A DNA stretch of 51,853 nt from a bacterium HR08 (GTDB taxonomy: Bacteria; Acidobacteriota; Blastocatellia; HR10), in contig BEHK01000001.1 in the NCBI GenBank assembly GCA_002898775.1, positions 1 through 51,853 on the forward strand, given 5' to 3'. Position numbers and translations under genes: made by a program. Shown here piece after piece: positions 3,001 to 25,200 of the stretch (position 1 is its first letter; each line of letters begins with the position of its first letter). The notes below the pieces were generated by a model that saw only the letters and a list, made by a program, of their open reading frames with translations, was not told the DNA's origin and searched no databases.

Positions 3001-4065
3001 CTACTTGTTGCGTCCCCTTTGGCGAGCGACCGGGGTGTAAATCTTCGTATCCGGGAAGTAGGCGGCCCAGGCGTACCAGGCTCCCGTGTGAGCCGGCACG
3101 GCTGCAAGTTGCTCGCCGCGCAGTCGCCCCGACTCGGCGCGACCGGCCAAGTTCCACCGGGAGCGCGTGGCCGTATCCACCGCATCGAGCCGTTGGCCCT
3201 GCCGATCCGCGTTTTCGAACCGGAGCACGCGCTTGCCCAGCTTGCGCTCGTAAGCGGCTGCGGTGTTCGCCTGTGGGTCGTAGAAGACGACGATCGGCAC
3301 GCCGCCGACGACATCGTTGATCACGCCGCCCGCCTGCTTGAGCGTGGATAAGGGATAGGCTTTGCGTTCATCGCCCAGGGCCACCGCCAGGACCAGCTCC
3401 ATCCTTCCCAATCGCTCATCCCGATGCGTGAGCGTGCGCTCGAAAACGGGGCTGAGCTGCCGGGGCTGCCAGCGGAAGGGCTTGTAGTGGGCTTGATGCG
3501 GCGTCCGGTTGGAAACGATCAGCGTATCGGGATGGAGCTGTTTCCACTTCGCCCAGCTCGTCTGCACGACCGCGAGTTTGTTGAGTCTTTGGCCTGCGAG
3601 CGGGCCGTCCATCGCCTCACCGCTCGTCAACGACCAGACGCTCCCCGTCTCCCGATCGGCGAACACCAGTTCGGCATTATACAACCCGTGAGGCTTGAAC
3701 GTCAGCCGCTTCCCCTCGTCGGTCGCGGAGTCGAACCCGACTCCCGTCCCGCAGACCGGTCAGTAGACGAGGACGATGGAGCGGCCCCTGACGACGTCGT
3801 TGACCACGTGATGATAGGCCATGATCCGGAGCGGATAGGCCCGGCTCTCTCCCTCAAGTGCAATGCCCATCACCGTCTCGTTGTCATCCAGGTAGCCACT
3901 ATCGGGATGGGTGGCGGGGATGAACTCCGGGTTGGTCAACTCCGGGGGGAATTGGGTGACGACGAAGAGCTTGTCTTTTTGGAACTGAGAAAGCGCGTTC
4001 ATAGGTCCCATCGTCAAGAGAGCGACGAGCGGCACCGTCAGGCGGCCGAATCGTCGAAGCGTCAT
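3001..4065 (-). CDS. DUF3179-family exported protein (paralog) with an in-frame TGA (3760-3762) at the first Cys of CPxC; candidate selenoprotein (UPVC)
   Basis: ORFs 3760-4065 and 3001-3684 are in frame (1065 nt). The read-through gives RSIVLVY-U-PVCGTGVGFD followed by LYNAELVFADRETGSVWS. It has a signal-like N-terminus, and an AAGGAGGTGA SD lies upstream. Confidence 0.7.
3727..3744 (-). promoter_or_regulatory. Candidate SECIS-like hairpin downstream of TGA 3760-3762
   Basis: GGAGUCG-GGUU-CGACUCC is a perfect 7-bp stem. The loop GGUU lies 23-26 nt after the UGA, the same register as in the paralog. Confidence 0.5.
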
Positions 4066-5048: not shown

Positions 5049-5080
5049 TTGACCTTGCAGTTGGCTGCAAGGTTTAGAAT
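5049..5080 (+). promoter_or_regulatory. MerR/CueR-type promoter-operator
   Basis: In TTGACC-ttgcagttggctgcaaggtt-TAGAAT the spacer is 20 nt. It carries a perfect dyad ACCTTGCAG-N4-CTGCAAGGT that overlaps the -35 element. Confidence 0.7.
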
Positions 5081-5104
5081 GGCAGACGTGAAAGGAGGCG
5101 TGAG

Positions 5105-5554
5105 ATGTCGGGTCGGACGTTTTACATCGGCGAGCTGGCGCGGGCCGTGGGGGTGAAGCCCCAGACGGTTCGCTATTACGAGCGGGAGGGATTGTTGGGA
5201 CGGGCGGCGCGGACGCGTTCGGGCTACCGCCTCTACGATGAGGAGGCGCTCTTGCGGCTGCGCTTCATTCGAGCGGCGCAAGCGCTGGGGCTGTCGCTGG
5301 CGGAGATTCGAGAGCTTGTGGTGCTCAGCCGCGAGGGACGGTCCCCGTGCGCGCGAGTCCGAACCTTGCTCCGAGAAAAGCTTCGGGCGCTGGATCAGAA
5401 GATCGCCGAGCTGCGAGCCTTTCGCCGGGAGCTGGCCGCTCGACTCGCTCAATTGGACGCGATGCCCGATCAAGCAGACTCCTCGCCCTACGTCTGCTCG
5501 CTCATCATGACGCTGGCCCGGCGTCACCGTCCAGATCACGGAAAGGAGGGATGA
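5105..5554 (+). CDS. MerR-family heavy-metal-responsive transcriptional regulator
   Basis: The N-terminal HTH reads YIGELARAVGVKPQTVRYYEREGLL. It has a coiled-coil dimerisation helix and Cys residues at GRSPCARV and PYVCSL. An AGGAGG SD lies upstream. Confidence 0.85.
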   Translation: MSGRTFYIGELARAVGVKPQTVRYYEREGLLGRAARTRSGYRLYDEEALLRLRFIRAAQALGLSLAEIRELVVLSREGRSPCARVRTLLREKLRALDQKIAELRAFRRELAARLAQLDAMPDQADSSPYVCSLIMTLARRHRPDHGKEG

Positions 5555-5557
5555 CCT

Positions 5558-5731
5558 ATGCGACGAACCCGTCGGATCGTGCTGTTGCTGGCCTTGAGCG
5601 TGGCGATCGGATCGGGAGCACTCTATGGGTTCAAGGTGTCGTCCGAGAGCCCGGCGAGCTGCCCGGGTCGGATCGTCTGCCCGCTCACGGGCAAGATCAT
5701 CTGTCGCGACGCCTGTCCGCTGAAGAAGTGA
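5558..5731 (+). CDS. 57-aa membrane-anchored Cys-rich peptide (not in ORF track, under 60 aa)
   Basis: The peptide is MRRTRRIVLLLALSVAIGSGALYGFKVSSESPASCPGRIVCPLTGKIICRDACPLKK. A GGAGGG SD lies 7 nt upstream, and the start is 4 nt after the regulator stop. Confidence 0.5.
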   Translation: MRRTRRIVLLLALSVAIGSGALYGFKVSSESPASCPGRIVCPLTGKIICRDACPLKK

Positions 5732-5749
5732 CGGCGTCGGTCACCGCAG

Positions 5750-5773
5750 GGGAGCGCCTGCGAGGGCGCTCCC
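5750..5773 (+). other. GC-rich stem-loop between the small peptide gene and the next gene
   Basis: GGGAGCGCC-tgcgag-GGCGCTCCC has a 9-bp stem and no U-tract. It may be an attenuator or a processing site. Confidence 0.3.
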
Positions 5774-5813
5774 TCGTGGAGGGAAGGAGGCTGAGATAGA
5801 GAAGCGGCGCGCT

Positions 5814-6101
5814 ATGGTTCGCCGGTGGGGGCCAATCTACAGTGGGGTGGCGGTGCTGGCATCGCTCCCCTGGTGCTGACTGGCGCCGACGGTGTTCGCC
5901 CTGCTCGGGACAGCAGGGACCGTCGCCGCGCACATGATCTTCGTCCGCGGGAATGCGATCTTCGAGGGCCTCACCGTGTACGCTCTGCTGCGCGCGCATT
6001 ATCTGGTGAACGTGAGGGGGCAGGGAGGGCGAACGGCTCGCTTCACGGTGTGGGCGGGGACACTCGTCTCGGCCTTGCTTTGGAGCTTTCGCCTCTTTTG
6101 A
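5814..6101 (+). CDS. MerT/MerF-like small membrane protein with an in-frame TGA (5877-5879) at the second Cys of the TM1 Cys-Cys pair; candidate selenoprotein (C-U)
   Basis: The read-through VLASLPWC-U-LAPTVFALLGTAGTV aligns with ASLCCTGPLVAALLGLGS of the MerT-like proteins at 8310 and 10791. ORF 5892-6101 is in frame with ATG 5814. The product has about three hydrophobic helices. The SD is weak. Confidence 0.55.
5899..5918 (+). promoter_or_regulatory. Candidate SECIS-like hairpin downstream of TGA 5877-5879
   Basis: CCCUGC-ucgggaca-GCAGGG has a 6-7 bp stem. The loop begins 26 nt after the UGA. Confidence 0.35.
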
Positions 6102-6115
6102 CCGGGAACCGTCAC

Positions 6116-7126
6116 ATGCCCTATCGGCCGGAAACTTCGGAATTCGTAGCGGCCTTTGCCTCGACGGCAGAGCCTCAGGAAAAGCCAGCAGGAAAGCCTG
6201 CGCCATTCCGGAGAGCGCGGTCCTGGAGCGCGGCGCTTTTGTTCCTCGGCGGCGTGGGGCTTTCATCGGCTGAACTGCGCGCCCAGACCATCGTGGCTCC
6301 GAGCGCGCGCACGCTCTTCAATCGGGCGACGCTTGTGCGCTTGTCGGTCGAAGTCCGGCATTCGTCCCTTCGAACAGACGGAAGATCAACCGCTGTCACT
6401 CAGTATGTCCCGGTGCTGGCCGTCGTCTATGGATTTCGCCCGAACTGGACGATCATCGTGGCTCAGCCTTACGCGGTCGTAGATGTGACCAACCGGATGG
6501 GGGATGAAACCCGACGAGAGAGCTTGAACGGCCTGGCTGATACGCGGGTGTTTATTCAATACGATGGGCTTTACAGGCGCAACACGCCCGGCGGGCTGAC
6601 GCGGCTATCGGCGGTCTTTGGTGTGCAGGTCCCCACCGGTGCCGATCGGTTCTCAACAGGTGCGGTGGCTTATACTGGCGGAATGATCTTCCAGAAAGCG
6701 GTGAGGTTGAAGCATGTCTTCACCGGAGATTTCGAATATACTCGTGCGACCGAGAACCGTCGGGGCCTCTCGATGGGCGACCGGATCCGGTTTGACGCCG
6801 CTCTGTCGCGCTTTGTTATTTCCCAGGATAAAGCTCCGCCTGGCGCGAGTTGGCCGCGCAAGGCCTTCGATCGCATCTTTCGTTACGGAGCGTACTTCGT
6901 CCTGGAACTCAACGGCACTTGGCAGGCTCGCGCCCGCACTCGCGGAACTCCGATTCCCGACAGCGGCGGGACGATGCTCTCGGTGTCGCCGGGAATCCAG
7001 TGGTTTTTGAGCAACGCGTTTTTGGTCGAGATTTCCGCCCCGATTCCAGTCGTCAAGGCGCTCAGCGGGAAGCAGCCCAAACCCAACTCGACGTTTCTCT
7101 TGGGATTCCGGATTCTGTTTTTCTGA
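6116..7126 (+). CDS. Outer-membrane beta-barrel protein (MetA/transporter-like), signal peptide
   Basis: Starting at ATG 6116 gives a signal-like SWSAALLFLGGVGLSSAELRAQ. The sequence has an alternating beta-strand pattern and ends in LLGFRILFF with a terminal Phe. Confidence 0.5.
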   Translation: MPYRPETSEFVAAFASTAEPQEKPAGKPAPFRRARSWSAALLFLGGVGLSSAELRAQTIVAPSARTLFNRATLVRLSVEVRHSSLRTDGRSTAVTQYVPVLAVVYGFRPNWTIIVAQPYAVVDVTNRMGDETRRESLNGLADTRVFIQYDGLYRRNTPGGLTRLSAVFGVQVPTGADRFSTGAVAYTGGMIFQKAVRLKHVFTGDFEYTRATENRRGLSMGDRIRFDAALSRFVISQDKAPPGASWPRKAFDRIFRYGAYFVLELNGTWQARARTRGTPIPDSGGTMLSVSPGIQWFLSNAFLVEISAPIPVVKALSGKQPKPNSTFLLGFRILFF

Positions 7127-7169
7127 GTATGAGACGACGAAACATTCAGCCTCTTTGGAGGGTTTGAAT

Positions 7170-7733
7170 ATGAGAAAGCAAGGCATGTGGCTTCTGTTTG
7201 TATTTTGCCTTCTTACCGCCGTGCCGGTGTCGGCCCAGGTCGAGAAGGCGAGGGTCAAAATTGACGGCATGATCTGAGGTCTCTGAGCGCGAGGGGCTCA
7301 GAGAGCCCTCCAACGCCTGGATGGCGTTGATCGTGTCGAGGTGAATTTGGTGAAAGGGGAAGCCGAAGTATTTTCCAAGCCCGAGAAGTCTTTCGATCCT
7401 GTCCTGATCCCTAAGGCTCTTCGGGAGGCCGGCTTCACGGCGACCGAGGTCGTGGTGACGGCTGAGGGAACTCTGATCAAGGGGGAGGAAGCCTTCACAC
7501 TGGATGTTCCGGGACTGGCGCACCCGTTTGTGCTGGCCGGCGGAGCACAGGCCGACACGCTCAGAAAACGGACAGACCTCGTGGGGAAGAAAATCCGCGT
7601 GACCGGGAAGCTTCATCCCAGCCATGCGGATCATCCGCCCGGCCTTACGGTCGAGAGCTTTGAGCAGTTGCGCGAGGATGGTCTCGGCCTCGGCGGGAAA
7701 ATGGTGTTGCGCCTGGTGGGGCGGAGAATGTGA
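7170..7733 (+). CDS. Secreted HMA (MerP/CopZ-fold) domain protein whose GMxCxxC metal site is encoded as GM-I-TGA-G-L-TGA; candidate U-x-x-U selenoprotein
   Basis: The signal peptide ends VSA/Q. Then comes VKIDGMI-U-GL-U-ARGAQRALQRLDGVDRVEVNLVKGEAEVF...ALREAGF, a canonical HMA fold. The TGAs are at 7275-7277 and 7284-7286, and everything is in frame with ORF 7341-7733. A GGAGG SD lies 8 nt upstream. Confidence 0.7.
7280..7310 (+). promoter_or_regulatory. Two overlapping, mutually exclusive hairpins at and after the paired TGAs (candidate SECIS)
   Basis: Stem A is UCUCUGAGC-gcgaggg-GCUCAGAGA (9 bp, and it includes the second UGA). Stem B is GAGGG(G)CUC-aga-GAGCCCUC (8 bp with a bulge). Confidence 0.4.
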
Positions 7734-7778: not shown

Positions 7779-7810
7779 TTGACTCTGGAGGCGAGTCCAG
7801 GGTTTATACT
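7779..7810 (+). promoter_or_regulatory. MerR-type promoter-operator
   Basis: In TTGACT-ctggaggcgagtccagggtt-TATACT the spacer is 20 nt. The dyad CyCTGGA-N6-TCCAGrG is imperfect. Confidence 0.65.
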
Positions 7811-7817
7811 TCCGATT

Positions 7818-8285
7818 GTGAAAACGAGCGGAGCAGAAGCGACGCTGTTGAAGATCGGGCAGGTGGCCGCCGAATGCGGCGTGAGCGTGGATACGCTCCG
7901 CTACTACGAGCGGTTGGGGCTTGTGCCCAAACCGGTGCGCACGGCGAGCGGGTATCGGCTCTACGATCGGCGCATCCTGGAGCGCTTGAGCTTCATCAAG
8001 CGGGCGCAGAGCTTCGGCTTCACGCTCGAGGAGATCAAACAGTTGCTCCAATTGCCGACGGCAGAACCGCGGACGTGCGCGGAAGTTCTTCAGGTGATCG
8101 AGCACAAGCTCGACGACCTCGATCGGCGATACGAAGAGATCAAGCGGCTGCGGCGGGAGCTGGCGGCCTACAAGGCCGAGTGCGAGCGGGCTCTCGCCGG
8201 GCGGAAGAGTTGTCCGGTCATCGAAGATTTTCTTCACCCTTCCTCTCGCGCGGCAAAGCCCCGGCGGGGGCGGAAGCGAGAGTGA
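7818..8285 (+). CDS. merR: MerR (mercury-type) transcriptional regulator
   Basis: The HTH reads KIGQVAAECGVSVDTLRYYERLGL. Three Cys residues are placed as in Hg-MerR (EPRTCAEV, AECERA, KSCPVIEDF; compare SCPLI in Tn21 MerR). The start is uncertain: GTG 7818, which would be nearly leaderless, or TTG 7848. Confidence 0.8.
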   Translation: MKTSGAEATLLKIGQVAAECGVSVDTLRYYERLGLVPKPVRTASGYRLYDRRILERLSFIKRAQSFGFTLEEIKQLLQLPTAEPRTCAEVLQVIEHKLDDLDRRYEEIKRLRRELAAYKAECERALAGRKSCPVIEDFLHPSSRAAKPRRGRKRE

Positions 8286-8309
8286 ACGGATGTCGTGGAA
8301 GGAGGGACG

Positions 8310-9116
8310 ATGAGAGAGAAGATCACACTGGGGGCATCACTCATTGGGGCGATCGCGGCGTCGCTCTGCTGCACGGGGCCGCTTGTGGCTGCGCTCCTTG
8401 GCCTGGGCAGTTTCGGCGCGGCGGCGGCCTTCGAGGCCTGGCGACCATATTTGCTCGGCGTCACGGCAGTGCTGCTTCTCGCAGCGTTTTATTTCACCTA
8501 CCGCCGGCCAAAGGTCGCTTGCGCCGAGGGCGCGTGCGCGACGTCCGAGGCTTCGCGGTGGAGCAAGCTCGCGCTGTGGATCGCTGCGGGCGCCGTCATA
8601 GCACTTGCGGCCTTTCCGTATTATTCGGGGCGGCTGTGGGCGGCGCTCGGTCGCCACGCGGGCGGGCCATCGGCGTCACACGCGCAGGCGGCGACCGGCC
8701 GAATCATCACGGCGCGAATGGCCGTCACGGGGATGACCTGCGGCGGGTGCGCAACTGCGCTGGAAGCAGCGCTCAGAGAGATCTCCGGAGTGCAATTGGC
8801 GGCGGCGAGCTACGAGAAAGGCGAAGCCACCGTCGAGTACGATCCGGCGCGGGTCAAGTTAGAAAAGCTTGTGGAAACGGTCAAGGAGACCGGATTCACG
8901 GTCGAAGCTGTGACGGCGACCATCCCTGTCGAAGGGATGACCTGTGCCGGGTGCGCGGTGTCGGTCCGGCAGGCGCTCCTGCAGCGCGATGGGGTGAAGG
9001 CTGTGGAAGTCAGTGTCGAGAAGAAGCACGCCGTCGTGACGTTCGATCCGGCCCGCCTCACCCTCGAGCAAGTGGCCGACGCGATCAACAAAACGGGTTT
9101 CAAGGCCCTCCTGTGA
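8310..9116 (+). CDS. merT: MerT-like mercuric transporter fused to two HMA (MerP-like) domains
   Basis: TM1 reads ASLCCTGP, the loop carries CAEGAC, and there are two GMTCxxC domains (GMTCGGCA and GMTCAGCA). Confidence 0.8.
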   Translation: MREKITLGASLIGAIAASLCCTGPLVAALLGLGSFGAAAAFEAWRPYLLGVTAVLLLAAFYFTYRRPKVACAEGACATSEASRWSKLALWIAAGAVIALAAFPYYSGRLWAALGRHAGGPSASHAQAATGRIITARMAVTGMTCGGCATALEAALREISGVQLAAASYEKGEATVEYDPARVKLEKLVETVKETGFTVEAVTATIPVEGMTCAGCAVSVRQALLQRDGVKAVEVSVEKKHAVVTFDPARLTLEQVADAINKTGFKALL

Positions 9117-9262: not shown

Positions 9263-9790
9263 ATGTCCGAGTGTTGCCAGGTGCCGATCGTGGCCAATTC
9301 AGCTCACTGCCGCTTGTGCGGGCGGAAAGGACAGTCCGTCACGCGGCGGACGATGGAACACTTGCTCGTGGATTCGGCGAGGGCCCGCCTCGAGGATCAT
9401 CCCTACTTTTTCTGCGCGACGCCGACCTGTCCGGTCGTCTACTTTTCCAACGAGGCGGATTCCTACTTCTGCAAAGGTGATGTGCGCGTGCGGGTGGGAG
9501 TGAAGGAAACCGAAGATCCGGTGCCGATCTGCTATTGCTTCGGCATCACGGAGAAGATGGTGCGCGATGAGATCGCAGCGACGGGACGGACGACGATTCC
9601 CGATTACATCAAGGCGCAAATCAAATCGGGCCGATGCGCTTGTGAGATCATGAATCCTTCGGGCCGATGCTGCCTCGGCGTCGTGACCGGGATCGCGCTC
9701 AGACTAGTGAAGCGATCGGGCTCGACAAGGAAGCGGGAAGAATCTATTGCGGCCTCGATGCCCGAGTGCTGCGCGGTGACGAAGTCGTGA
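9263..9790 (+). CDS. Cys-rich CopZ-family / putative Fe-S metallochaperone-like protein
   Basis: It contains MSECCQVP, CRLCGRKG, YFFCATPTCPVVYF, a BFD-like ICYCFGIT and a C-terminal PECCAV. A GAGGAGGTG SD lies upstream. Confidence 0.6.
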   Translation: MSECCQVPIVANSAHCRLCGRKGQSVTRRTMEHLLVDSARARLEDHPYFFCATPTCPVVYFSNEADSYFCKGDVRVRVGVKETEDPVPICYCFGITEKMVRDEIAATGRTTIPDYIKAQIKSGRCACEIMNPSGRCCLGVVTGIALRLVKRSGSTRKREESIAASMPECCAVTKS

Positions 9791-10292: not shown

Positions 10293-10324
10293 TTGACTCT
10301 GGAGCTTGCTCTAGGGCTTACAAT
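10293..10324 (+). promoter_or_regulatory. MerR-type promoter-operator
   Basis: In TTGACT-ctggagcttgctctagggct-TACAAT the spacer is 20 nt and the dyad is imperfect. The first 12 nt are identical to the promoter at 7779. Confidence 0.6.
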
Positions 10325-10344
10325 CCGAACCTGGGAGGTCAGCG

Positions 10345-10794
10345 ATGACGGACAAAGCCGTGCTCAAGATCGGCGAAGTGGCTGCGCGAAGTGGCGTCGG
10401 CATTGACACCTTTCGCTACGATGAGCGGCTCGGCTTGTCGCCTCGAGCGGTGCACACCCGGAGCGGTTATCGCGTGTATGATCCGAACGCGATTGATCGA
10501 ATCGCCTTCATTAAGCGGGCCAAGAGCTTCGGTTTCGCCCTCAATGAAATCTGCGATCTCGTCCGGGCTGAGACCGCAGACCCTGAAACCTGCTTCACTG
10601 TGTTGCGGGTGATTGAACGAAAGCTTGGTGATCTGAATCGCCGACATGCAGAGATCAAACGACTGAGGCGAGAGCTGGCCGTCTACAAAGCCACCGGCGA
10701 GCGGGCCATCGCCGACGACAAGGCTCGTCCGGTCATCGAGGATTTTCTTCAGGGCTCCTATCAACGAACGGGCAACGGAGGGAACAAAACATGA
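10345..10794 (+). CDS. MerR-family regulator, paralog lacking two of the three Hg-ligand Cys residues
   Basis: The HTH reads KIGEVAARSGVGIDTFRYDERLGL. It keeps ETCFTV, but where the paralog has AECERALAGRKSCPVIEDF it reads ATGERAIADDKARPVIEDF. Confidence 0.8.
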   Translation: MTDKAVLKIGEVAARSGVGIDTFRYDERLGLSPRAVHTRSGYRVYDPNAIDRIAFIKRAKSFGFALNEICDLVRAETADPETCFTVLRVIERKLGDLNRRHAEIKRLRRELAVYKATGERAIADDKARPVIEDFLQGSYQRTGNGGNKT

Positions 10795-11669
10795 AAAGGG
10801 AGACAACGCTCGTAGCATCCGTGATCGCGGCGATCACGGCTTCGCTCTGCTGCCTGGGGCCGATTGTGGCCGCGGTCGTTGGCCTGGGCAGTTTTGGGGC
10901 GGCGGCTGTGTTCGAGACCTGGCGGCCCTATCTGCTAGGGGTGACCTTTGGGCTGCTCGGGCTGGGGTTTTACTTCACCTATCGCAAGCAGGAAGTACAC
11001 TGCGCCGATAGGAGTGTATGCGCGACGCGCCCTTCAGTAGGTCGGTGGAATAAAATCCTGCTGTGGCTGGCAACAGGTCTCGTCATCGCCTTCGCCACGT
11101 TTCCGTATTACTCCGGAGCAGTCTGGAGGTTCTTGTTGACTAAAGGGGAAACGCAAGCGATAACCGATCCGGCAGCCCCAGGCGATTCGCCGTCACGATC
11201 GAATGAATTCGCCGTGGCGGGCCAAGCCCAACAGCCATCGTCACCAGCGGAGGAACCTCAAACCAGCTCGCCCAAGCTGGCGGCCGAATCTGCACGAGAT
11301 AGAGGGGCCGTTCGGAGGTCAATCTCAGCATCGAAAACATACGGAGGGACTGTTCAGAGGGCGGGCTCAGCATCAAAACCCCTGGCGGCCAACTCGCCAT
11401 CCACCACCGCCGCAATCCGCAATCCGCAAGACGTGCCCGCCCTGACACGCGCAACGATTGAAATTCAAGGCATGCATTGTGCCGGCTGTGCGGTGAATGT
11501 TGAGCAAGCACTCAAGCGACTGCCGGGCGTTAAAGCTGTCGTAGCAAGCTATGAAAAAGGTCAGGCCGTAGTTGAGTACGATCCAGCGAAAGTCAAGCCG
11601 GAACAGCTCAAAGCCGCTATTGACGGGATCGGATACAAGGTCGGAGCGGTGCACACAGCGCAACCGTGA
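10791..11669 (+). CDS. merT: MerT-like transporter fused through a low-complexity linker to one HMA domain
   Basis: It contains ASLCCLGP, the loop CADRSVC and GMHCAGCA. Its start overlaps the regulator stop (ATGA). Confidence 0.8.
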   Translation: MKRETTLVASVIAAITASLCCLGPIVAAVVGLGSFGAAAVFETWRPYLLGVTFGLLGLGFYFTYRKQEVHCADRSVCATRPSVGRWNKILLWLATGLVIAFATFPYYSGAVWRFLLTKGETQAITDPAAPGDSPSRSNEFAVAGQAQQPSSPAEEPQTSSPKLAAESARDRGAVRRSISASKTYGGTVQRAGSASKPLAANSPSTTAAIRNPQDVPALTRATIEIQGMHCAGCAVNVEQALKRLPGVKAVVASYEKGQAVVEYDPAKVKPEQLKAAIDGIGYKVGAVHTAQP

Positions 11670-14168: not shown

Positions 14169-15566
14169 ATGGAGAGGAAGGTAAAGGTTGGTGCCGTTCT
14201 GGCGCTCCTCATTTTGGCCGGAGTGCTTTGGCTCGCCCTGCCCTCGGGCGGGCTCGTTCCTGAGGACGTATCGGTTTCAGCCTCCGAGTTGCCATCGGCG
14301 GAGACGTGCAAACCGTGCCACGAGGAGATCTATAATCAGTGGCGAGAGTCGTATCACGCCCGCTCGATTCACGAGCCTACCTTCCGAGCCATGCTGACCA
14401 TCTTTGCCTACAACACGCGCGGGACGAATCCCGAGGTGTGGGGCCCGAATTATGAGTTCTGTTTTAACTGCCATGCGCCGGAAGTGAAAGTCAAAAACAA
14501 TGCCGCCGAGCTGGCCCGCCAAATCCGCAACGGCGAGAAGATCACGAGCGAAGGGATCACCTGCACGGTCTGTCACTCCATCGAGTGGGTGACGGACATT
14601 CCGGATCCCAATGTGCCGGTCGCATTCGATGTGGGTCCGACACTGCCCTACCACAAAGTGAAAAAGACCGCCTTGTTCGAGCAATCGGTGCTTTGCTCGC
14701 CCTGTCACGATTACAACAATCCGTATGCGGTCGTGGCCCATCAGGTCTATAAATCCGATCCCGGGGTCACGGGCGTGCCGTGCTGTACGGTCAACCGAGA
14801 CTGGAAAAAGACTTCGTATGCCCAAAAAGGCATCACCTGCCAATCCTGCCACATGCGCGAAGAACAGCAGGTCGTCCAGTTAAGTGGGTTCGATAAGTTT
14901 AAAAACATGCTGTACGCCCTGACGGGGCTGACGCGATATCGAGATGACCGGCGGCGCGTCAGTCATACCTTCCCTGGCGGGCGCTCCGAAGAGATGCTCA
15001 AGCGCGCCGTAAAGATGGAGATCGAAGCCGAATCCGCGGGAGACGACATCAAGGCGACCGTCGCTTTGAGAAACCTCACTGGCCATAGCATCCCCAACGG
15101 CTGACCGCCGAGGACGCGCATCGTGCTCAGGTTCTGGGCACAGGACGAACACGGCAATGAACTCTTCTCCGACACGAGAGAATACGGGTTCAACTTCGTT
15201 GATCCGAAAGGCAACGAGCCGGCCATGGTGGATAGCACAAGCGGTCGAGGGTATGAGGTTGTGCTTGAACCCGAGGTGACGCGGCGCGAGTCGTTCGCTT
15301 TCCCCCGGCCTGAAGGGAGCCGGCGGCTTGAGCTGAAGGCGACTCTGACGTACATCTTCTTCGTTCCACCGCCGCCGGACGCCATGAACCGAATGCAACA
15401 GGACATCATCGCTCGGATACAAACCGCTAAGACGCCAGAGGAGAAGGATCGAATTCTGAACGAAGAGATTCCGGCGCGGATGCGGTCCATGAATATCTTG
15501 GCGACAACCTATCCGCCGGTGGTCATGGCGTCCGTGACGAAGGCCTTGGAGATCGGGAGGCGTTGA
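14169..15566 (+). CDS. Periplasmic multihaem cytochrome c (five CxxCH) interrupted by one in-frame TGA (15102-15104); either a read-through (Sec?) product or a pseudogene
   Basis: The haem motifs are CKPCH, CFNCH, CTVCH, CSPCH and CQSCH. ORFs 14169-15104 and 15123-15566 share a frame (1398 nt) and read LTGHSIPNG-TGA-PPRTRIVLRFWAQDEHG. Confidence 0.55.
15123..15141 (+). promoter_or_regulatory. Hairpin downstream of TGA 15102-15104
   Basis: GUGCUCAG-guu-CUGGGCAC has 8 bp including one G-U pair. The loop lies 27-29 nt after the UGA. Confidence 0.3.
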
Positions 15567-21083: not shown

Positions 21084-23482
21084 ACGCAAAAGACGGCTGC
21101 GCCTTCGGCCAACCGGGAATTCCGCCTCGATGGACCTCAAGCTCGAAGGAGGGAGTGGGAACAGCTTACAGCACGTCCAGTCGCGTCTGGTTTACCATCT
21201 CACATGGCATCCTCAACGAGGTCTATTATCCGACGATTGACCGCCCGCAGATCAGAGACCTCGAGTTCCTCATCAGCGATGGTGAGACCTTCTTTCACGA
21301 AGAGAAGCGCCACCTCGTCCACCAGATCGAGTACATCGAGCGTCATACGCTGGGCTATCGCATCACGAGCACCGACCCGCAGGGGCGATATCGGATCATC
21401 AAAGAGATCATCGCGGACCCTCATGCCCCTTGTGTGCTCATACACGCCAGGATCGAAACGGCCGCGGAGTGGTCGGATCGCTTGCAGGTTTATGCGTTGC
21501 TTGCGCCACATCTGGAAGTGGGAGGTTGGGGCAACTCGGCTCGAAAGTTTCGCGTTGCGGGAAGCGATGTCCTCGTAGCTTGGAAAGGCCGGACCTATCT
21601 GGCTATGGGAACGAACGTAGGTTTCGCTAAGACATCCTGTGGATACGTGGGCGCAAGCGACGGCTGGCAAGATCTAAACGACAACTTTCAGATGGACTGG
21701 CAGTTCGAACGGGCTGAGGACGGGAATGTTGCCGTCATCGGACAGATCGCCCTGACCAAAGATAAGGAATTCACCTTAGGATTGGCCTTTGGAGACGGAC
21801 TGCACGCAGCGGTGACAACTCTGATTCAATCGTTAAGTGTGCCTTTTGCCGAACAGAGGGAGAAATATATCGAGCAATGGCATCGCGTCTGCTGCGATAT
21901 CCTTGATTTGGATGGGTACTCCTGCGACGGTGGGCGCCTGTATCGTATCAGCCACAGCTTGTTGCTGGCGCACGAGGATAAGACGTTCGCCGGGGCTCTG
22001 ATCGCCTCGGCGAGCATCCCGTGGGGAGACGCGAAGGGTGATGAGGATCTCGGCGGCTACCATCTGGTATGGACTCGTGACATGGTTCACAGTGCCACGG
22101 GGCTTTTAGCCTGTGGCGACGCGGTGACGCCACGTCGGGCGCTCATCTATCTGGCCTGCTCGCAGCGCGCCGACGGAGGCTTTCCGCAAAACTTCTGGCT
22201 CGATGGAACGCCGTACTGGAACGGCATCCAGCTTGACGAGGTGGCCTTCCCCGTGATGTTGGCCTGGCGGTTGTGGAAGGCCGATGCGCTGGGTGAGTTC
22301 GACCCTTATCCGATGGTCCGGGCAGCCGCCGCGTACTTGATTCGCCAAGGTCCGGCGACGCAGCAAGAGCGCTGGGAGGAAAACAGCGGATATTCGCCCT
22401 CGACGCTCGCCGCGACCATTGCCGCGCTGATCTGCGCCGCAGACTTCGCCCGCTCGCGCGATCACCGGGAAGCGGCTCTTTTCCTCGAAGAGTATGCTGA
22501 CTTCTTGGAATCACACGTCGAGCGCTGGACGGTGACGACACAAGGGAGTTTGGTACAAGGGATCTCAAGGCATTACATTCGTATTCTTCCCACGGACATT
22601 AATGACCCTGCGCCGGAGGAGGACCCGAATCGCGGCGTGCTTCAGATTCGCAACAGACCTCCGGGCGAAAAGTGGGAGTTTCCGGCAAAAGATATCGTTG
22701 ATGCGGGCTTCTTGGAATTAGTCCGTTACGGCATACGTAAACCGGGAGACCCGCTCATCGAAGACTCGCTCGAAGTTGTGGACGCTGTGCTCAAGGTGGA
22801 TACGCCCTTTGGTCCCTGCTGGCGCCGCTACAACTACGATGGATACGGGACGCGTCCGGACGGCGGCCCGTTTGAGGGATGGGGAAAGGGGCGAGCGTGG
22901 CCGCTTCTTACCGGTGAGCGAGGTCACTATGAGCTTGCTGCTGGCCGCGATGTGAGACCGTATATCCGGGCGATGGAGTGCTTCGCTTCCAGAGGGGGCA
23001 TGCTTCCTGAGCAAGTGTGGGACGAGCCGGACCGGCCTGATCTGGGCCTGTACCTGGGCCGGCCGGCAGGTTCGGCAATGCCTCTGATGTGGGCGCATGC
23101 GGAATACATCAAGCTGCTCAGATCGGCCGCCGACGGCCAGGTGTTCGATCTGATTCCAGTTGTGGCCGAGCGTTATCTTGCTGGGCGTGGACGCAAGGAC
23201 CTTGAGGTGTGGAAACCAAACCGCCAAGTGCGGCGAGTCGTGCCAGGGCAGGTGTTGCGCGTTCAAGCGCCGGCGCCCTTTCGGCTCCGGTGGACGGCGA
23301 ACGAATGGCAGAGTTTCCAGGATACGATGTCGCTCTCCAGCAGCCTGGGCATCTTCTTCGTGGATATCCCTGTGGCTGAAGGACAGCGTGCGCCCATCCG
23401 ATTCGCATTCTTCTGGACCGACAGGGAGCAATGGGAAGACCAAGAGTACCGAGTTGAAGTCGAAGAGAAAGCCAGGTCATGA
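21080..23482 (+). CDS. GH15 glucoamylase / glucodextranase-like glycoside hydrolase
   Basis: It contains PRWTSSSKEGVGTAYS, ILNEVYYPTIDRPQIRDLEF, YHLVWTRDMV and ERWEENSGYSPSTLA. ATG 21080 overlaps the DedA stop (ATGA). The track ORF from 20651 is a spurious N-terminal extension. Confidence 0.85.
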   Translation: MNAKDGCAFGQPGIPPRWTSSSKEGVGTAYSTSSRVWFTISHGILNEVYYPTIDRPQIRDLEFLISDGETFFHEEKRHLVHQIEYIERHTLGYRITSTDPQGRYRIIKEIIADPHAPCVLIHARIETAAEWSDRLQVYALLAPHLEVGGWGNSARKFRVAGSDVLVAWKGRTYLAMGTNVGFAKTSCGYVGASDGWQDLNDNFQMDWQFERAEDGNVAVIGQIALTKDKEFTLGLAFGDGLHAAVTTLIQSLSVPFAEQREKYIEQWHRVCCDILDLDGYSCDGGRLYRISHSLLLAHEDKTFAGALIASASIPWGDAKGDEDLGGYHLVWTRDMVHSATGLLACGDAVTPRRALIYLACSQRADGGFPQNFWLDGTPYWNGIQLDEVAFPVMLAWRLWKADALGEFDPYPMVRAAAAYLIRQGPATQQERWEENSGYSPSTLAATIAALICAADFARSRDHREAALFLEEYADFLESHVERWTVTTQGSLVQGISRHYIRILPTDINDPAPEEDPNRGVLQIRNRPPGEKWEFPAKDIVDAGFLELVRYGIRKPGDPLIEDSLEVVDAVLKVDTPFGPCWRRYNYDGYGTRPDGGPFEGWGKGRAWPLLTGERGHYELAAGRDVRPYIRAMECFASRGGMLPEQVWDEPDRPDLGLYLGRPAGSAMPLMWAHAEYIKLLRSAADGQVFDLIPVVAERYLAGRGRKDLEVWKPNRQVRRVVPGQVLRVQAPAPFRLRWTANEWQSFQDTMSLSSSLGIFFVDIPVAEGQRAPIRFAFFWTDREQWEDQEYRVEVEEKARS

Positions 23483-23535
23483 CTGTGTCACCGGTGTATG
23501 GCGCTCACTCAATCCTCGATAAGGAGGTACAGACG

Positions 23536-25200
23536 ATGACTGAGCGAACGCATGTCACTTTGCGCATTGAAGGGATGACCTGCGACGGTTGCGCCCGGCA
23601 TGTCACTGAGGCGCTCAAGAACGTCGCCGGGGTCATCGAAGTTCACGTGCCCGGCTGGCGGTCGGGACAGGCCACAGTCATCGCCGAAGCCGGCATTAGC
23701 GACGAGGCATTGATTCGTGCCGTCCGCGACGCGGGCTATCGCGCCCTGGTGCGCGAACGGCGACCGCTGGAAGGCGAGCGTCGAGCGCCGAAGCCAGAAA
23801 GGGCCGATTATGATCTCATGATCATCGGCGGCGGATCGGCGGGGTTTGCGGCTGCGATCAAAGGCGCAGAGTTGGGCGCGAACGTGGCCATTGTCGAGGG
23901 CGGCACCATCGGCGGCACGTGCGTCAACATCGGCTGCGTGCCTTCGAAGACGCTGATCAAGGCAGCCGAACTCTGCTACCGCTCCGCCTATCCCAAATTC
24001 GAAGGACTCACCGCTTGTCCGCCGCCGTCGGATTGGCGGCGAGTCGTCGAACAAAAAGATGAATTGGTGGCGGCCCTGCGTCAGGGCAAGTACATCAACG
24101 TGGTGGATGTGTATCCCAATATCACGCTCATTCGCGGCTGGGCCAGGCTCACGGGCGGTCGCCAAGTCTCGGTCAACGGCACGACCTATACGCCGGGGAA
24201 GATCATCATTGCAACCGGCTCGCGTCCGTGGGCGCCGCCGATTCCGGGGTTGAAAGAAGCGGGGTACTTGGACAGCACCGATGCTTTGAGTCTTCCGGCC
24301 TTGCCGCAATCGCTCCTGATCATCGGAGCCGGAGCCATCGGGCTTGAACTAGGGCAGCTCTTCAGCCGCTTCGGTGTGCGCGTGATGATCCTCGAGGCTG
24401 GCCCTCACGTCGCGGGGATGGAGGAACCGGAGATCGGAGAGGCGCTCACGCGGTACCTCGAAGAGGAGAAGATGCGCATCTGCACCGGGGTGACCATCCA
24501 TCGCGTCGAGCGGGTAGGGAACGAGTACCACGTCATGGCGACCATCAATGGACGCGAGGAGATCTGCGCGGCGGAGCAAGTGATGGTGGCGACCGGACGA
24601 CGGCCCAATACCGGGGGATTGGGATTGGAAGAGGCCGGAGTGCAGGTCGGCACGCGCGGGGAGATCCTGGTCAACGAGTATCTGCAAACGACCAATCCCG
24701 ACATCTACGCGGCGGGCGATTGTATCGGCGATCCGATGTATGTTTACGTGGCCGCTTATGCCGGTGGAATGGCGGCGGAGAATGCCCTGACCGGAGCGGG
24801 ACGGATTTACGATCTTTCAGCTCTGCCGCATGTCATCTTCACCGACCCGCAGGTGGCGAGCGTGGGCCTGACCGAAGCGCAGGCGCGGGAGAAAGGATTG
24901 AAGGTCAAAACGTCGGTCTTGCATCTGAAAGACGTGCCGCGGGCGCTGGCGGCTCGCGATACGCGGGGGCTCATCAAGCTCGTCGCCGAAGAGAGTACAG
25001 GCCGACTCCTTGGGGCACACGTTCTAGCCGATGAAGCGGGCGAGGTGATTCAAGAGGCAACGCTGGCCATTCGCTTCGGGCTGACGATCAAAGACATTGT
25101 CGAGACGTTCCACCCTTACTTGACGATGGTTGAAGGGCTGAAGTTGGCGGCGCTCGCGTTCGAACGAGACGTGGCCAAGCTCTCCTGCTGCGCCACCTGA
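23536..25200 (+). CDS. merA: Mercuric reductase MerA with N-terminal HMA domain
   Basis: It contains GMTCDGCA, the FAD motif IIGGGSAGFAAA, the redox site GGTCVNIGCVPSK and a C-terminal KLSCCAT. An AAGGAGG SD lies 8 nt before ATG 23536. Confidence 0.95.
   Translation: MTERTHVTLRIEGMTCDGCARHVTEALKNVAGVIEVHVPGWRSGQATVIAEAGISDEALIRAVRDAGYRALVRERRPLEGERRAPKPERADYDLMIIGGGSAGFAAAIKGAELGANVAIVEGGTIGGTCVNIGCVPSKTLIKAAELCYRSAYPKFEGLTACPPPSDWRRVVEQKDELVAALRQGKYINVVDVYPNITLIRGWARLTGGRQVSVNGTTYTPGKIIIATGSRPWAPPIPGLKEAGYLDSTDALSLPALPQSLLIIGAGAIGLELGQLFSRFGVRVMILEAGPHVAGMEEPEIGEALTRYLEEEKMRICTGVTIHRVERVGNEYHVMATINGREEICAAEQVMVATGRRPNTGGLGLEEAGVQVGTRGEILVNEYLQTTNPDIYAAGDCIGDPMYVYVAAYAGGMAAENALTGAGRIYDLSALPHVIFTDPQVASVGLTEAQAREKGLKVKTSVLHLKDVPRALAARDTRGLIKLVAEESTGRLLGAHVLADEAGEVIQEATLAIRFGLTIKDIVETFHPYLTMVEGLKLAALAFERDVAKLSCCAT

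Follow-up and report, generated by a model that had tools for sequence, protein, structure and literature searches.

The closest described relatives of the locus considered here are the mercury-resistance (mer) operons, such as those of Tn501 and Tn21, with their small proteins MerP and MerT. In mer operons of the Bacillus RC607 type, merR is co-transcribed as the first gene. A five-gene unit of the Acidobacteriota bacterium HR08 follows much of this plan. It lies in a stretch of 51,853 nucleotides (nt; contig BEHK01000001.1, assembly GCA_002898775.1, positions 1 to 51,853; hereafter the window), where it occupies positions 5105-7733 of the + strand. As in the Tn501 and Tn21 operons, the genes are preceded by a MerR-type promoter that combines a dyad with an unusually long spacer, and as in operons of the RC607 type the regulator gene comes first. 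Two products of the unit recall mer proteins: a secreted HMA protein whose two ligands are spaced x-x, as in MerP, and a small membrane protein of three helices with vicinal ligands in the first, as in MerT; MerA and MerTP are found in the neighborhood of the unit, as in mer systems. However, the predicted ligands are selenocysteine (Sec, U) in the arrangements UxxU and C-U, an OB-fold domain is added to the HMA protein, and the MerT-like protein has no Cys pair on the cytoplasmic side and stays below the MerT cutoffs of Pfam and NCBIfam. The unit also differs from mer operons in having a dedicated outer-membrane barrel, no merA, and a regulator with two of the three Cys residues of MerR. On comparative evidence, we lean with moderate confidence towards a metal-inducible relay that would capture a soft metal, most probably Hg(II), and import it across the whole envelope.

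Selenoproteins related to two of these components are already known and listed in reviews, namely UxxU HMA proteins (NF041115) and C-U MerT-family proteins. NF041115, 'UxxU_metal_bind', made its first appearance in selenoproteome surveys (PMC9312934, PMC13188914), under the name 'putative mercuric reductase, UxxU'. It resembles the window protein in its HMA fold and in having Sec at both metal-ligand positions, but it is a 74-position single-domain model, whereas the window protein has a signal peptide, an OB domain and an outer-membrane partner gene. C-U MerT-family selenoproteins are mentioned by Haft (2022, bioRxiv 10.1101/2022.07.06.499078), and NCBIfam includes a model for a MerT/CopZ fusion selenoprotein (NF045683). 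The window protein shares with the former the Cys-Sec dipeptide at the helix-1 metal site. However, it is a stand-alone protein of 95 aa with the motif PW-C-U...AHY, and, unlike these C-U MerT proteins and NF045683, its relatives also come in U-U and C-U-U forms. The window proteins fail the cutoffs of the UxxU HMA, MerT-family and MerT/CopZ selenoprotein models alike. The initial annotation of the locus, made from its sequence, had called the module undescribed, which holds for the assembly but not for these two catalogued parts. A literature search on selenoproteins, MerP, Acidobacteria and NF041115 did not find the module described; likewise, no description was found of the HMA-OB family, of its partner in the outer membrane or of the paired hairpins that follow paired UGAs.

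Two further groups of proteins bear on the comparison. The barrel resembles COG4313/PF13557 channels (Pput2725, TcpY, SphA) and FapF, both by its gathering score and by TM-scores of 0.68-0.75 (4rl8, 5o65). The known functions of COG4313/FapF members are uptake of hydrophobic organics and secretion of amyloid subunits, a setting unlike that of the window barrel. A search of the literature, with most subscription journals outside its reach, returned no paper in which a COG4313/FapF barrel is connected with mer genes, a MerR operon or an HMA protein. The copper-silver proteins CueR, CopZ and CusF offer a similar combination of MerR-family activation, an HMA metallochaperone and a small periplasmic beta-barrel metal protein. 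Unlike CueR, the window regulator has Cys rather than Ser at the discriminating position and is missing the first loop Cys, and unlike in copper-silver systems no CopA/CusCBA neighbors are found in the window.

Selenocysteine codons and their hairpins

The last gene of the unit (7170..7733, +) encodes a secreted two-domain protein of 187 aa, HMA-OB, with a signal peptide (approximately aa 1-22, ending ...VSA before QV) and an HMA domain (PF00403, 1.6e-11). Its HMA motif reads GMI-U-GL-U, with Sec codons at 7275-7277 and 7284-7286. A third in-frame TGA (5877-5879) forms part of a TGC-TGA pair (5874-5879) in the motif LPW-C-U-LAP of the membrane protein (5814..6101, +). All three codons had been reported in the initial annotation and are present as described; comparison with orthologs upholds both its C-U reading of the membrane protein and its UxxU reading of the HMA protein.

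That comparison draws on 45 related loci fetched from genomes and metagenomes, cited below by handles such as L001. Both HMA sites are TGA in ~35 of them, at protein identities down to 45%. The HR10 clade has TGT...TGA (CxxU), with Cys at the first site only, and CxxC is found in one Spirochaetia metagenome-assembled genome (MAG) and one Cyclobacteriaceae MAG (L015, L016), as well as in remote full-length homologs. Judged by this conservation of in-frame UGA in orthologs and of Cys at the Sec positions of homologs, the TGAs of the HMA and C-U genes are selenocysteine codons. Reassignment of TGA to Gly or Trp was considered and rejected: the genome has 60% GC and most genes end normally in TGA. 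The 'W' reading of both HMA codons in one JGI entry (P0002) is a gene-caller artefact.

The databases represent this family poorly. A homolog search with the HMA protein returned ~120 proteins, nearly all of 102-125 aa and covering only the part after the TGAs, because gene callers had truncated them at these codons; their public names are 'hypothetical' or 'HMA domain protein'. An exhaustive profile search gave 404 cluster representatives, the nearest of which are truncated Sec forms. Remoter representatives are full-length, at 160-190 aa, with a signal peptide and CPFC. Since more than 100 database entries are truncated at UGAs and vaguely named, metagenomic surveys of mer genes and selenoproteome surveys miss the family.

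Further support for the Sec reading comes from two DUF3179 genes on the opposite strand directly upstream of the operon (1270-2274 and 3001-4065, -), each with one in-frame TGA (VTW-U-PLC and LVY-U-PVC) and each listed as two open reading frames (ORFs) by gene callers. DUF3179 UxxC proteins are a catalogued selenoprotein family, and the same gene pair is found in HR10 (L001). A crude window-wide scan for in-frame TGAs returned only these two genes and same-frame neighbors. No tRNA was found by a tRNA scan of the window or of 21 loci, which thus give no direct evidence of selC, and an Rfam scan of the window at gathering threshold gave no match.

The RNA around the two HMA UGAs was compared in 29 distinct sequences, using RNAalifold and a manually drawn structure. 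The two agree on adjacent hairpins, A and B, after the UGAs. Hairpin A (7293..7309, +; GGGGCU/AGCCCU, loop CAGAG) lies 21 nt past the first UGA and 12 nt past the second, with 97% of alignment cells paired and a closing pair that is C-G in 19, U-G in 3 and U-A in 2 sequences. Synonymous sites in its stem are frozen, with Gly encoded by GGG in 28/28 and Ala by GCC in 27/28. Hairpin B (7311..7329, +; CAACGCC-UGGAU-GGCGUUG) lies 31 nt past the second UGA and 40 nt past the first. Here 98.5% of cells are paired, at pair 44-60 17 sequences have A-U and 12 have G-C, a compensatory change, and the fold in the window has a z-score of -3.9. For both hairpins together, 97.9% of cells are paired, whereas a shift of the partners by 1-3 columns leaves 27-49% paired. 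Fourfold-degenerate third positions at conserved residues vary by 0-0.22 bit in the stems versus 1.1-1.9 bits elsewhere in the gene.

Bacterial selenocysteine insertion sequences (bSECIS) are expected to have an upper stem of 4-16 bp, a loop of 3-9 nt, a G in the first two loop positions and a distance of 16-37 nt past the UGA (PMC13188914). Hairpin B conforms to these rules for the second UGA (7 bp, loop UGGAU, 31 nt). For the first UGA the agreement is partial: hairpin A lies at the right distance, but its loop is often without an early G, and hairpin B is just out of range. A long hairpin formed by TCTCTGAGC and GCTCAGAGA, which encloses the second UGA, was discarded as a functional element, as it is not conserved in PL-type sequences.

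A SECIS-like hairpin also follows the UGA of the C-U gene (5881..5934, +; fold -29.7 kcal/mol, z-score -2.2). Its 7-bp upper stem (5899-5905/5912-5918) and loop CGGGAC (5906-5911), 26 nt after the UGA, satisfy the bSECIS rules for loop, stem, loop G and spacing. A second clade of C-U genes has a conserved hairpin at the same distance from the UGA; however, a joint alignment of both clades gave no common hairpin. Because the clades fold in different registers, the candidate element in the window is supported by its own fold and by near-identical relatives.

Components and conservation of the module

Five genes lie on the + strand behind the MerR-type promoter, as the initial annotation had placed them, with intergenic gaps of 3, 82, 14 and 43 nt. 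Searches of the PDB by sequence brought no useful match. The promoter (5049..5080, +), read directly from the sequence, consists of a -35 element TTGACC (5049-5054) and a -10 element TAGAAT (5075-5080) separated by a 20-nt spacer, and thus matches the layout of MerR promoters, in which a spacer of 19-20 nt holds a dyad operator. The dyad, ACCTTGCAG-N4-CTGCAAGGT, is a perfect 9+9 inverted repeat at 5052-5073. It is present in a single copy in the window and was matched by 0/100 dinucleotide-preserving shuffles, even at 3 mismatches. Whereas the promoter, the perfect dyad and the spacer length first described for this site are borne out, the dyad had been placed wholly inside the spacer and in fact starts within the -35 hexamer, which is the sole coordinate in need of correction. 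A default sigma-70 promoter scan reported no site at 5049-5080, because it accepts only spacers of 16-18 nt. Orthologous MerR genes have the same upstream frame, TTGAC followed by a 20-nt spacer and a GGTTTAGAAT-like sequence, while the operator half-sites vary by clade: ACCTTGCAG in the window clade, ACTCTATAG in L011, L014 and L022, and TCCGTAC in L003.

The first gene of the unit (5105..5554, +) encodes a MerR-family metal-sensor regulator of 149 aa, with an N-terminal MerR helix-turn-helix (MerR_1, PF13411, 4.4e-20) and a coiled-coil dimerization helix (MerR-DNA-bind, PF09278, 1.6e-19). It has exactly two Cys residues, as had been noted before: Cys82 at the start of the dimerization helix and Cys131 in the C-terminal loop. 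In MerR the metal-binding residues are C82, C117 and C126 (Tn501 numbering), while CueR has Ser at the start of the dimerization helix and the loop Cys pair C112/C120. An alignment with MerR, ZntR and CueR indicates that the equivalents of C82 and of the last loop Cys (C126) are kept in the regulator and its orthologs, that the first loop Cys (C117) is absent from all of them, and that the loop is four residues longer. The regulator likewise departs from CueR, with Cys where CueR has Ser and no equivalent of C112. A Cys at the start of the dimerization helix, as in MerR and ZntR and unlike the Ser of CueR, presumably points to a divalent ion. Scores remain below the cutoffs of both TIGR02051 (MerR proper; 95 vs 151 bits) and TIGR02044 (CueR; 87 vs 147 bits).

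The second gene (5558..5731, +), an ORF call, encodes a 57-aa mini-protein that would be membrane-anchored or secreted. It begins with RRTRR and one hydrophobic helix, followed by CPGRIVCPLTGKIICRDAC, and has four Cys residues. This Cys4 peptide has no Pfam or NCBIfam match, but it is 89-98% conserved in L001, L017 and L025, and a related motif, CPLxxKxIxxC(CC), is found in small secreted proteins encoded in L012 and L037. Of all components of the module, the small Cys-rich partner varies most; other forms are 13-18-aa ORFs of the MCPCCPYC type, MymT-like proteins of 47-54 aa and Thioredoxin_3-like proteins. The tiny ORFs of one module clade, directly 3' of the MerR gene (MCPCCPYCSDDCC, MCPLCPYCPDDGCC and MNKMCPCGPCPCCPADGD; L004 ~6212-6253, L014 ~5556-5600 and L011 1126-1182), are unannotated and conserved in position and composition.

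The third gene encodes the C-U protein, a three-helix membrane selenoprotein of 95 aa with an in-frame TGA that is assigned to the MerT superfamily by hhalign. The family is defined by the motif PW[C/U][C/U]...AHY, in which AHY is invariant. Variants C-U, U-U, C-U-U and C-C occupy the same site in 14 loci; TGA is found at the second or both sites in 12 of them, and C-C in L015 and L037. In L022 (4317) and L024 (1635) the MerT-like protein reads VP-C-U-U (TGC TGA TGA), which places three thiol or selenol residues in a row and two UGA codons next to each other. A homolog search with the C-U protein gave just 3 matches, all truncated, because the word index misses short divergent proteins, and the family was gathered by a pattern search in the fetched loci. 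For the label 'MerT-like' of the initial annotation, single-sequence searches give weak results: there is no Pfam match (MerT PF02411 included), the curated MerT cutoffs (PF02411, NF010314, NF033560) are missed, and NF033560 (MerT, RC607) scores 5e-5 and 23.6 bits against a cutoff of 130 bits, with weak matches to 9/11 family members. Profile-profile comparison supports the label. An 11-member profile aligns to MerT N-domains (hhalign 95.5%, E 1.6e-8), with C-U on the CC pair of MerT helix 1. The vicinal pair of the first transmembrane helix is thus present, as C-U, while the cytoplasmic loop of MerT with its second Cys pair is deleted in the family.

The fourth gene (6116..7126, +) encodes a 12-stranded beta-barrel outer-membrane protein (OMP) of 336 aa from the COG4313 / Phenol_MetA_deg family (PF13557, 4.6e-8; 33.9 bits, over the gathering cutoff of 22 bits), ending in ...GFRILFF. 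Its AlphaFold2 model (predicted local distance difference test, pLDDT, 82) shows the 12-stranded barrel and is matched by Foldseek to FapF (5o65/5o67; E 2e-11, TM-score 0.69-0.75) and to the COG4313 channel Pput2725 (4rl8; E 2.7e-9, TM-score 0.68). An exact-sequence look-up found the protein not on record. The OMP of the window and the HR10 clade has ~30 extra N-terminal residues (6116-6205) before a helix resembling a signal peptide; its start codon is uncertain because most homologs begin nearer the signal peptide.

In the HMA-OB protein, encoded by the fifth gene, the HMA domain is matched by the CopZ models of NCBIfam (8e-12) and by MerP (1.2e-7). With a signal peptide and an HMA domain it has the outline of MerP, but its ligands are U/U and an OB domain is added, and it scores 32 bits for TIGR02052 (MerP) against a cutoff of 92.55. 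For NF041115 the UxxU motif is present, and the score of 49.3 bits falls short of the cutoff of 95. The C-terminal domain was modeled by AlphaFold2 (pLDDT 82.8) from the residues after the second UGA, so that the metal site is outside the model, and Foldseek relates it to the OB folds of Stn1, SSB and RPA (E ~2e-3). The domain contains a motif HxHAD...PPGLTVE (KLHPSHADHPPGLTVE, 7596-7650 in the window), which is also kept in Cys-form homologs and may provide a second site for metal or a surface for docking. This OB-fold domain, the SECIS-like hairpins and the neighboring DUF3179 selenoprotein genes were not part of the initial annotation.

Gene order was compared across the related loci, since dispersal of the genes in orthologous loci had been named as grounds for giving up the five-gene module. 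The genes are linked, and by this comparison the module is conserved across Acidobacteriota. The pair formed by the barrel and HMA-OB is near-invariant, as the two genes adjoin in 26/28 loci that have at least 1.3 kb of upstream DNA, whereas the 57-aa peptide is confined to the window and the HR10 clade, so that the five-gene unit holds for its core but not in every part. A MerR gene with the same promoter frame belongs to the cluster in ~16 loci. At the inner membrane, the slot is taken by the PW[C/U][C/U] protein, a 157-aa 'LVCCALPALL' protein or the two together, with an HMA-MerC fusion in L045. The Spirochaetia MAG (L015) has a Cys-only module with MerR, both types of membrane protein, two HMA-OB genes, barrels and NHL. 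As far as sequence comparison can tell, chance does not account for TGAs, a gene order and a promoter type that recur in dozens of independent loci. A gene for a secreted NHL-repeat beta-propeller (ScyF-like, under cutoff) is a frequent extra member that is absent from the window (L009-L014, L019-L024, L037-L039, L045 and L015); in one clade it lies between the barrel and HMA-OB genes, and in others after them.

A candidate mercury relay and its rivals

The components span the inner membrane, the periplasm and the outer membrane in a layout distinct from merTPA, and in both respects the initial annotation is supported. In the scheme favored here, the metal-bound MerR-family regulator on the dyad would switch on its own gene and the four downstream. 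The COG4313/FapF-type barrel would provide the route through the outer membrane. HMA-OB would capture periplasmic metal at its diselenolate U-x-x-U site, in the role of MerP, and would hand it to the Cys-Sec pair in helix 1 of the MerT-superfamily protein, which would move the metal inward. Detoxification may be finished by MerA, whose gene lies 16 kb downstream, and by the two MerR-MerTP operons next to the unit, and the 57-aa Cys4 peptide could act as a membrane-anchored accessory ligand or buffer. The three UGAs would be read as Sec with the help of the hairpins inside the coding sequence. We infer from the locus the co-transcription of the genes, the identity of the metal, the direction of its transfer and the order of hand-over.

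Selenols bind metals more tightly than thiols and exchange ligands faster. Selenol ligands would be an advantage in habitats rich in sulfide or thiols, which already hold the metal in complexes. The initial annotation had left the cognate metal open. Mercury is favored here because the membrane partner is of the MerT/MerC type, the regulator has Cys at the divalent-metal position, and mer genes are found near the module in about ten loci: no more than 8 kb separates it from MerA or MerA-like, MerTP, MerC or zf-CopZ genes in L001, L003, L008, L022, L035, L037, L043, L044 and L045. In L045 the order is merA - P-type ATPase - HMA-MerC - barrel - HMA-OB - NHL - merR.

Several observations weigh against a mercury relay. 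The regulator falls under every NCBIfam equivalog cutoff, the best score being ZntR-like (111 vs 143 bits), and it is missing the third Cys of Hg-sensing MerR proteins. The unit is no canonical mer operon with merA in the same transcription unit, as MerA is 16 kb away. The second Cys pair of MerT is absent from the C-U protein, and therefore the hand-off to the cytoplasm would take place without an obvious ligand. Metal transfer from a diselenolate to a thiol is thermodynamically uphill, and to our knowledge canonical mer systems need no outer-membrane protein. The published descriptions of the barrel's relatives also fit poorly, COG4313 channels being described as uptake channels for hydrophobic molecules and FapF being known for transport of polypeptides. 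The remaining two points, the operator and the metallothioneins of some modules, belong to a copper-type alternative.

According to that alternative, which we consider unlikely though it is the strongest of the rivals, the same architecture would serve a monovalent ion, Cu(I), Ag(I) or Au(I), in periplasmic buffering or trafficking of the CueR/GolS type, with HMA-OB as a kind of CopZ/CusF hybrid. The outer bases of the operator, ACCTT...AAGGT, resemble CueR boxes. The initial annotation had used this resemblance to leave room for a Cu/Ag/Au-type sensor, but the argument is weakened by the ACTCTATAG-type and TCCGTAC-type boxes of orthologous modules. CopZ models match the HMA domain as well as MerP or better (8e-12 vs 1.2e-7), CusF is also a small periplasmic OB-like barrel comparable to the OB fold of HMA-OB, MymT-like copper-type metallothioneins are found in the modules of L005, L006 and L030, a P-type ATPase is present in L045, and two Cys residues would suit linear two-coordinate binding by the regulator. 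However, the regulator has Cys where CueR-type sensors have Ser and is without an equivalent of CueR C112, the inner-membrane partner belongs to the MerT superfamily or to MerC, and in most loci the neighbors are MerA, MerTP and MerC, not CopA/CusCBA.

A second alternative concerns the barrel. Its task could be secretion: as a dedicated pore of the FapF type it would export HMA-OB, which would then scavenge or immobilize metal outside the cell, at its surface or in the medium; we regard this as improbable, and somewhat more so than the copper-type function. FapF polypeptide transporters are the best structural matches of the model (E 2e-11, TM-score 0.69-0.75), the barrel and HMA-OB genes are nearly always adjacent, as in two-partner systems, the barrel is free of Cys (its Cys count is zero) and of other obvious soft-metal ligands, and the secreted NHL beta-propeller often accompanies the pair. 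Against these observations, the barrel is assigned to PF13557/COG4313 by Pfam, and its match to the small-molecule channel Pput2725 is almost as good. Unlike an unfolded amyloid subunit, HMA-OB consists of two folded domains, and the MerT-like inner-membrane partner is most simply explained by periplasmic hand-over.

The least tenable alternative, in which the TGAs are plain stops, the genes truncated fragments or pseudogenes and the five-gene unit an artefact, agrees with public gene calls that stop or start at these TGAs and with the lack of tRNA-Sec or sel genes in the window, but it is effectively excluded on comparative grounds, as TGA is kept at the same codons in ~35 loci while the surrounding codons diverge to 45% identity, the reading frame and signal peptide are conserved across the TGAs, homologs carry Cys at the same positions, the conserved hairpins show covariation and frozen synonymous sites, and known DUF3179 selenoprotein genes lie next to the operon.

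If the mercury relay is correct, the textbook model of mercury resistance would gain selenium chemistry and a step at the outer membrane, and the relay would suggest how Acidobacteriota of soils and hot springs compete for sulfide- or thiol-bound Hg. A bolder form of the proposal is tentative and rather doubtful as a whole: the locus might represent a widespread, as yet unannotated trans-envelope relay of Acidobacteriota for Hg(II)-type metals in which all four hand-over ligands can be selenols (UxxU in HMA-OB as periplasmic chaperone, C-U or U-U in a minimal MerT-like importer), the barrel is obligate and the SECIS elements are arranged in tandem. If true, mer-like pathways would gain their first outer-membrane component in the barrel, and each of the two UGAs, which lie three codons apart, would have a hairpin of its own. 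Two UGAs 9 nt apart with two conserved hairpins offer a testable case for SelB and closely spaced Sec codons, and the graded series from Cys to Sec (CxxC, CxxU and UxxU; CC, CU and UU) is a natural experiment on the benefit of selenium in metal trafficking.

Neighboring genes and minor observations

The operon ends at 7733 and the next MerR promoter starts at 7779. This second promoter, TTGACTCTGGAG...GGTTTATACT, precedes a MerR-MerTP operon (7779-9116, +) whose MerTP passes NF033556. A third MerR promoter, TTGACTCTGGAGC...GGCTTACAAT, is followed by another MerR-MerTP pair (10300-11669, genes 10345-11669, +), and the MerTP of both is a MerT-HMA fusion. While the second MerR of the window keeps all three MerR Cys residues, the third has lost two loop Cys residues (ATGERAIADDKARPVI) and may be a non-sensing or MerD-like copy. 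Between the two operons lies a gene for a zf_CopZ / 'CopZ_Nterm_CC' putative Fe-S metallochaperone (9263-9790, +; NF047645, over cutoff). This gene recurs beside MerTP in many related loci, and its family includes C-U selenoproteins (NF045877). MerA, with an N-terminal HMA domain, is encoded at 23479-25200 (+; TIGR02053, 583 bits against a cutoff of 454), far from any merT or merP gene and adjoined by patatin and radical-SAM genes.

Two further loci offer possible cases of UGA recoding. In L003 (~4171) and at the equivalent site of L007 (~4162), an HMA motif GMT-U-DS-C (TGA...TGT) lies downstream of a gene annotated T4_deiodinase/AhpC-TSA and probably represents a separate UxxC HMA selenoprotein. 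Within the window (14169-15566, +), a multihaem cytochrome ends with TGA (15102-15104) and is followed 18 nt on by a same-frame ORF of 147 aa without a family match, which could be a chance arrangement or another read-through.

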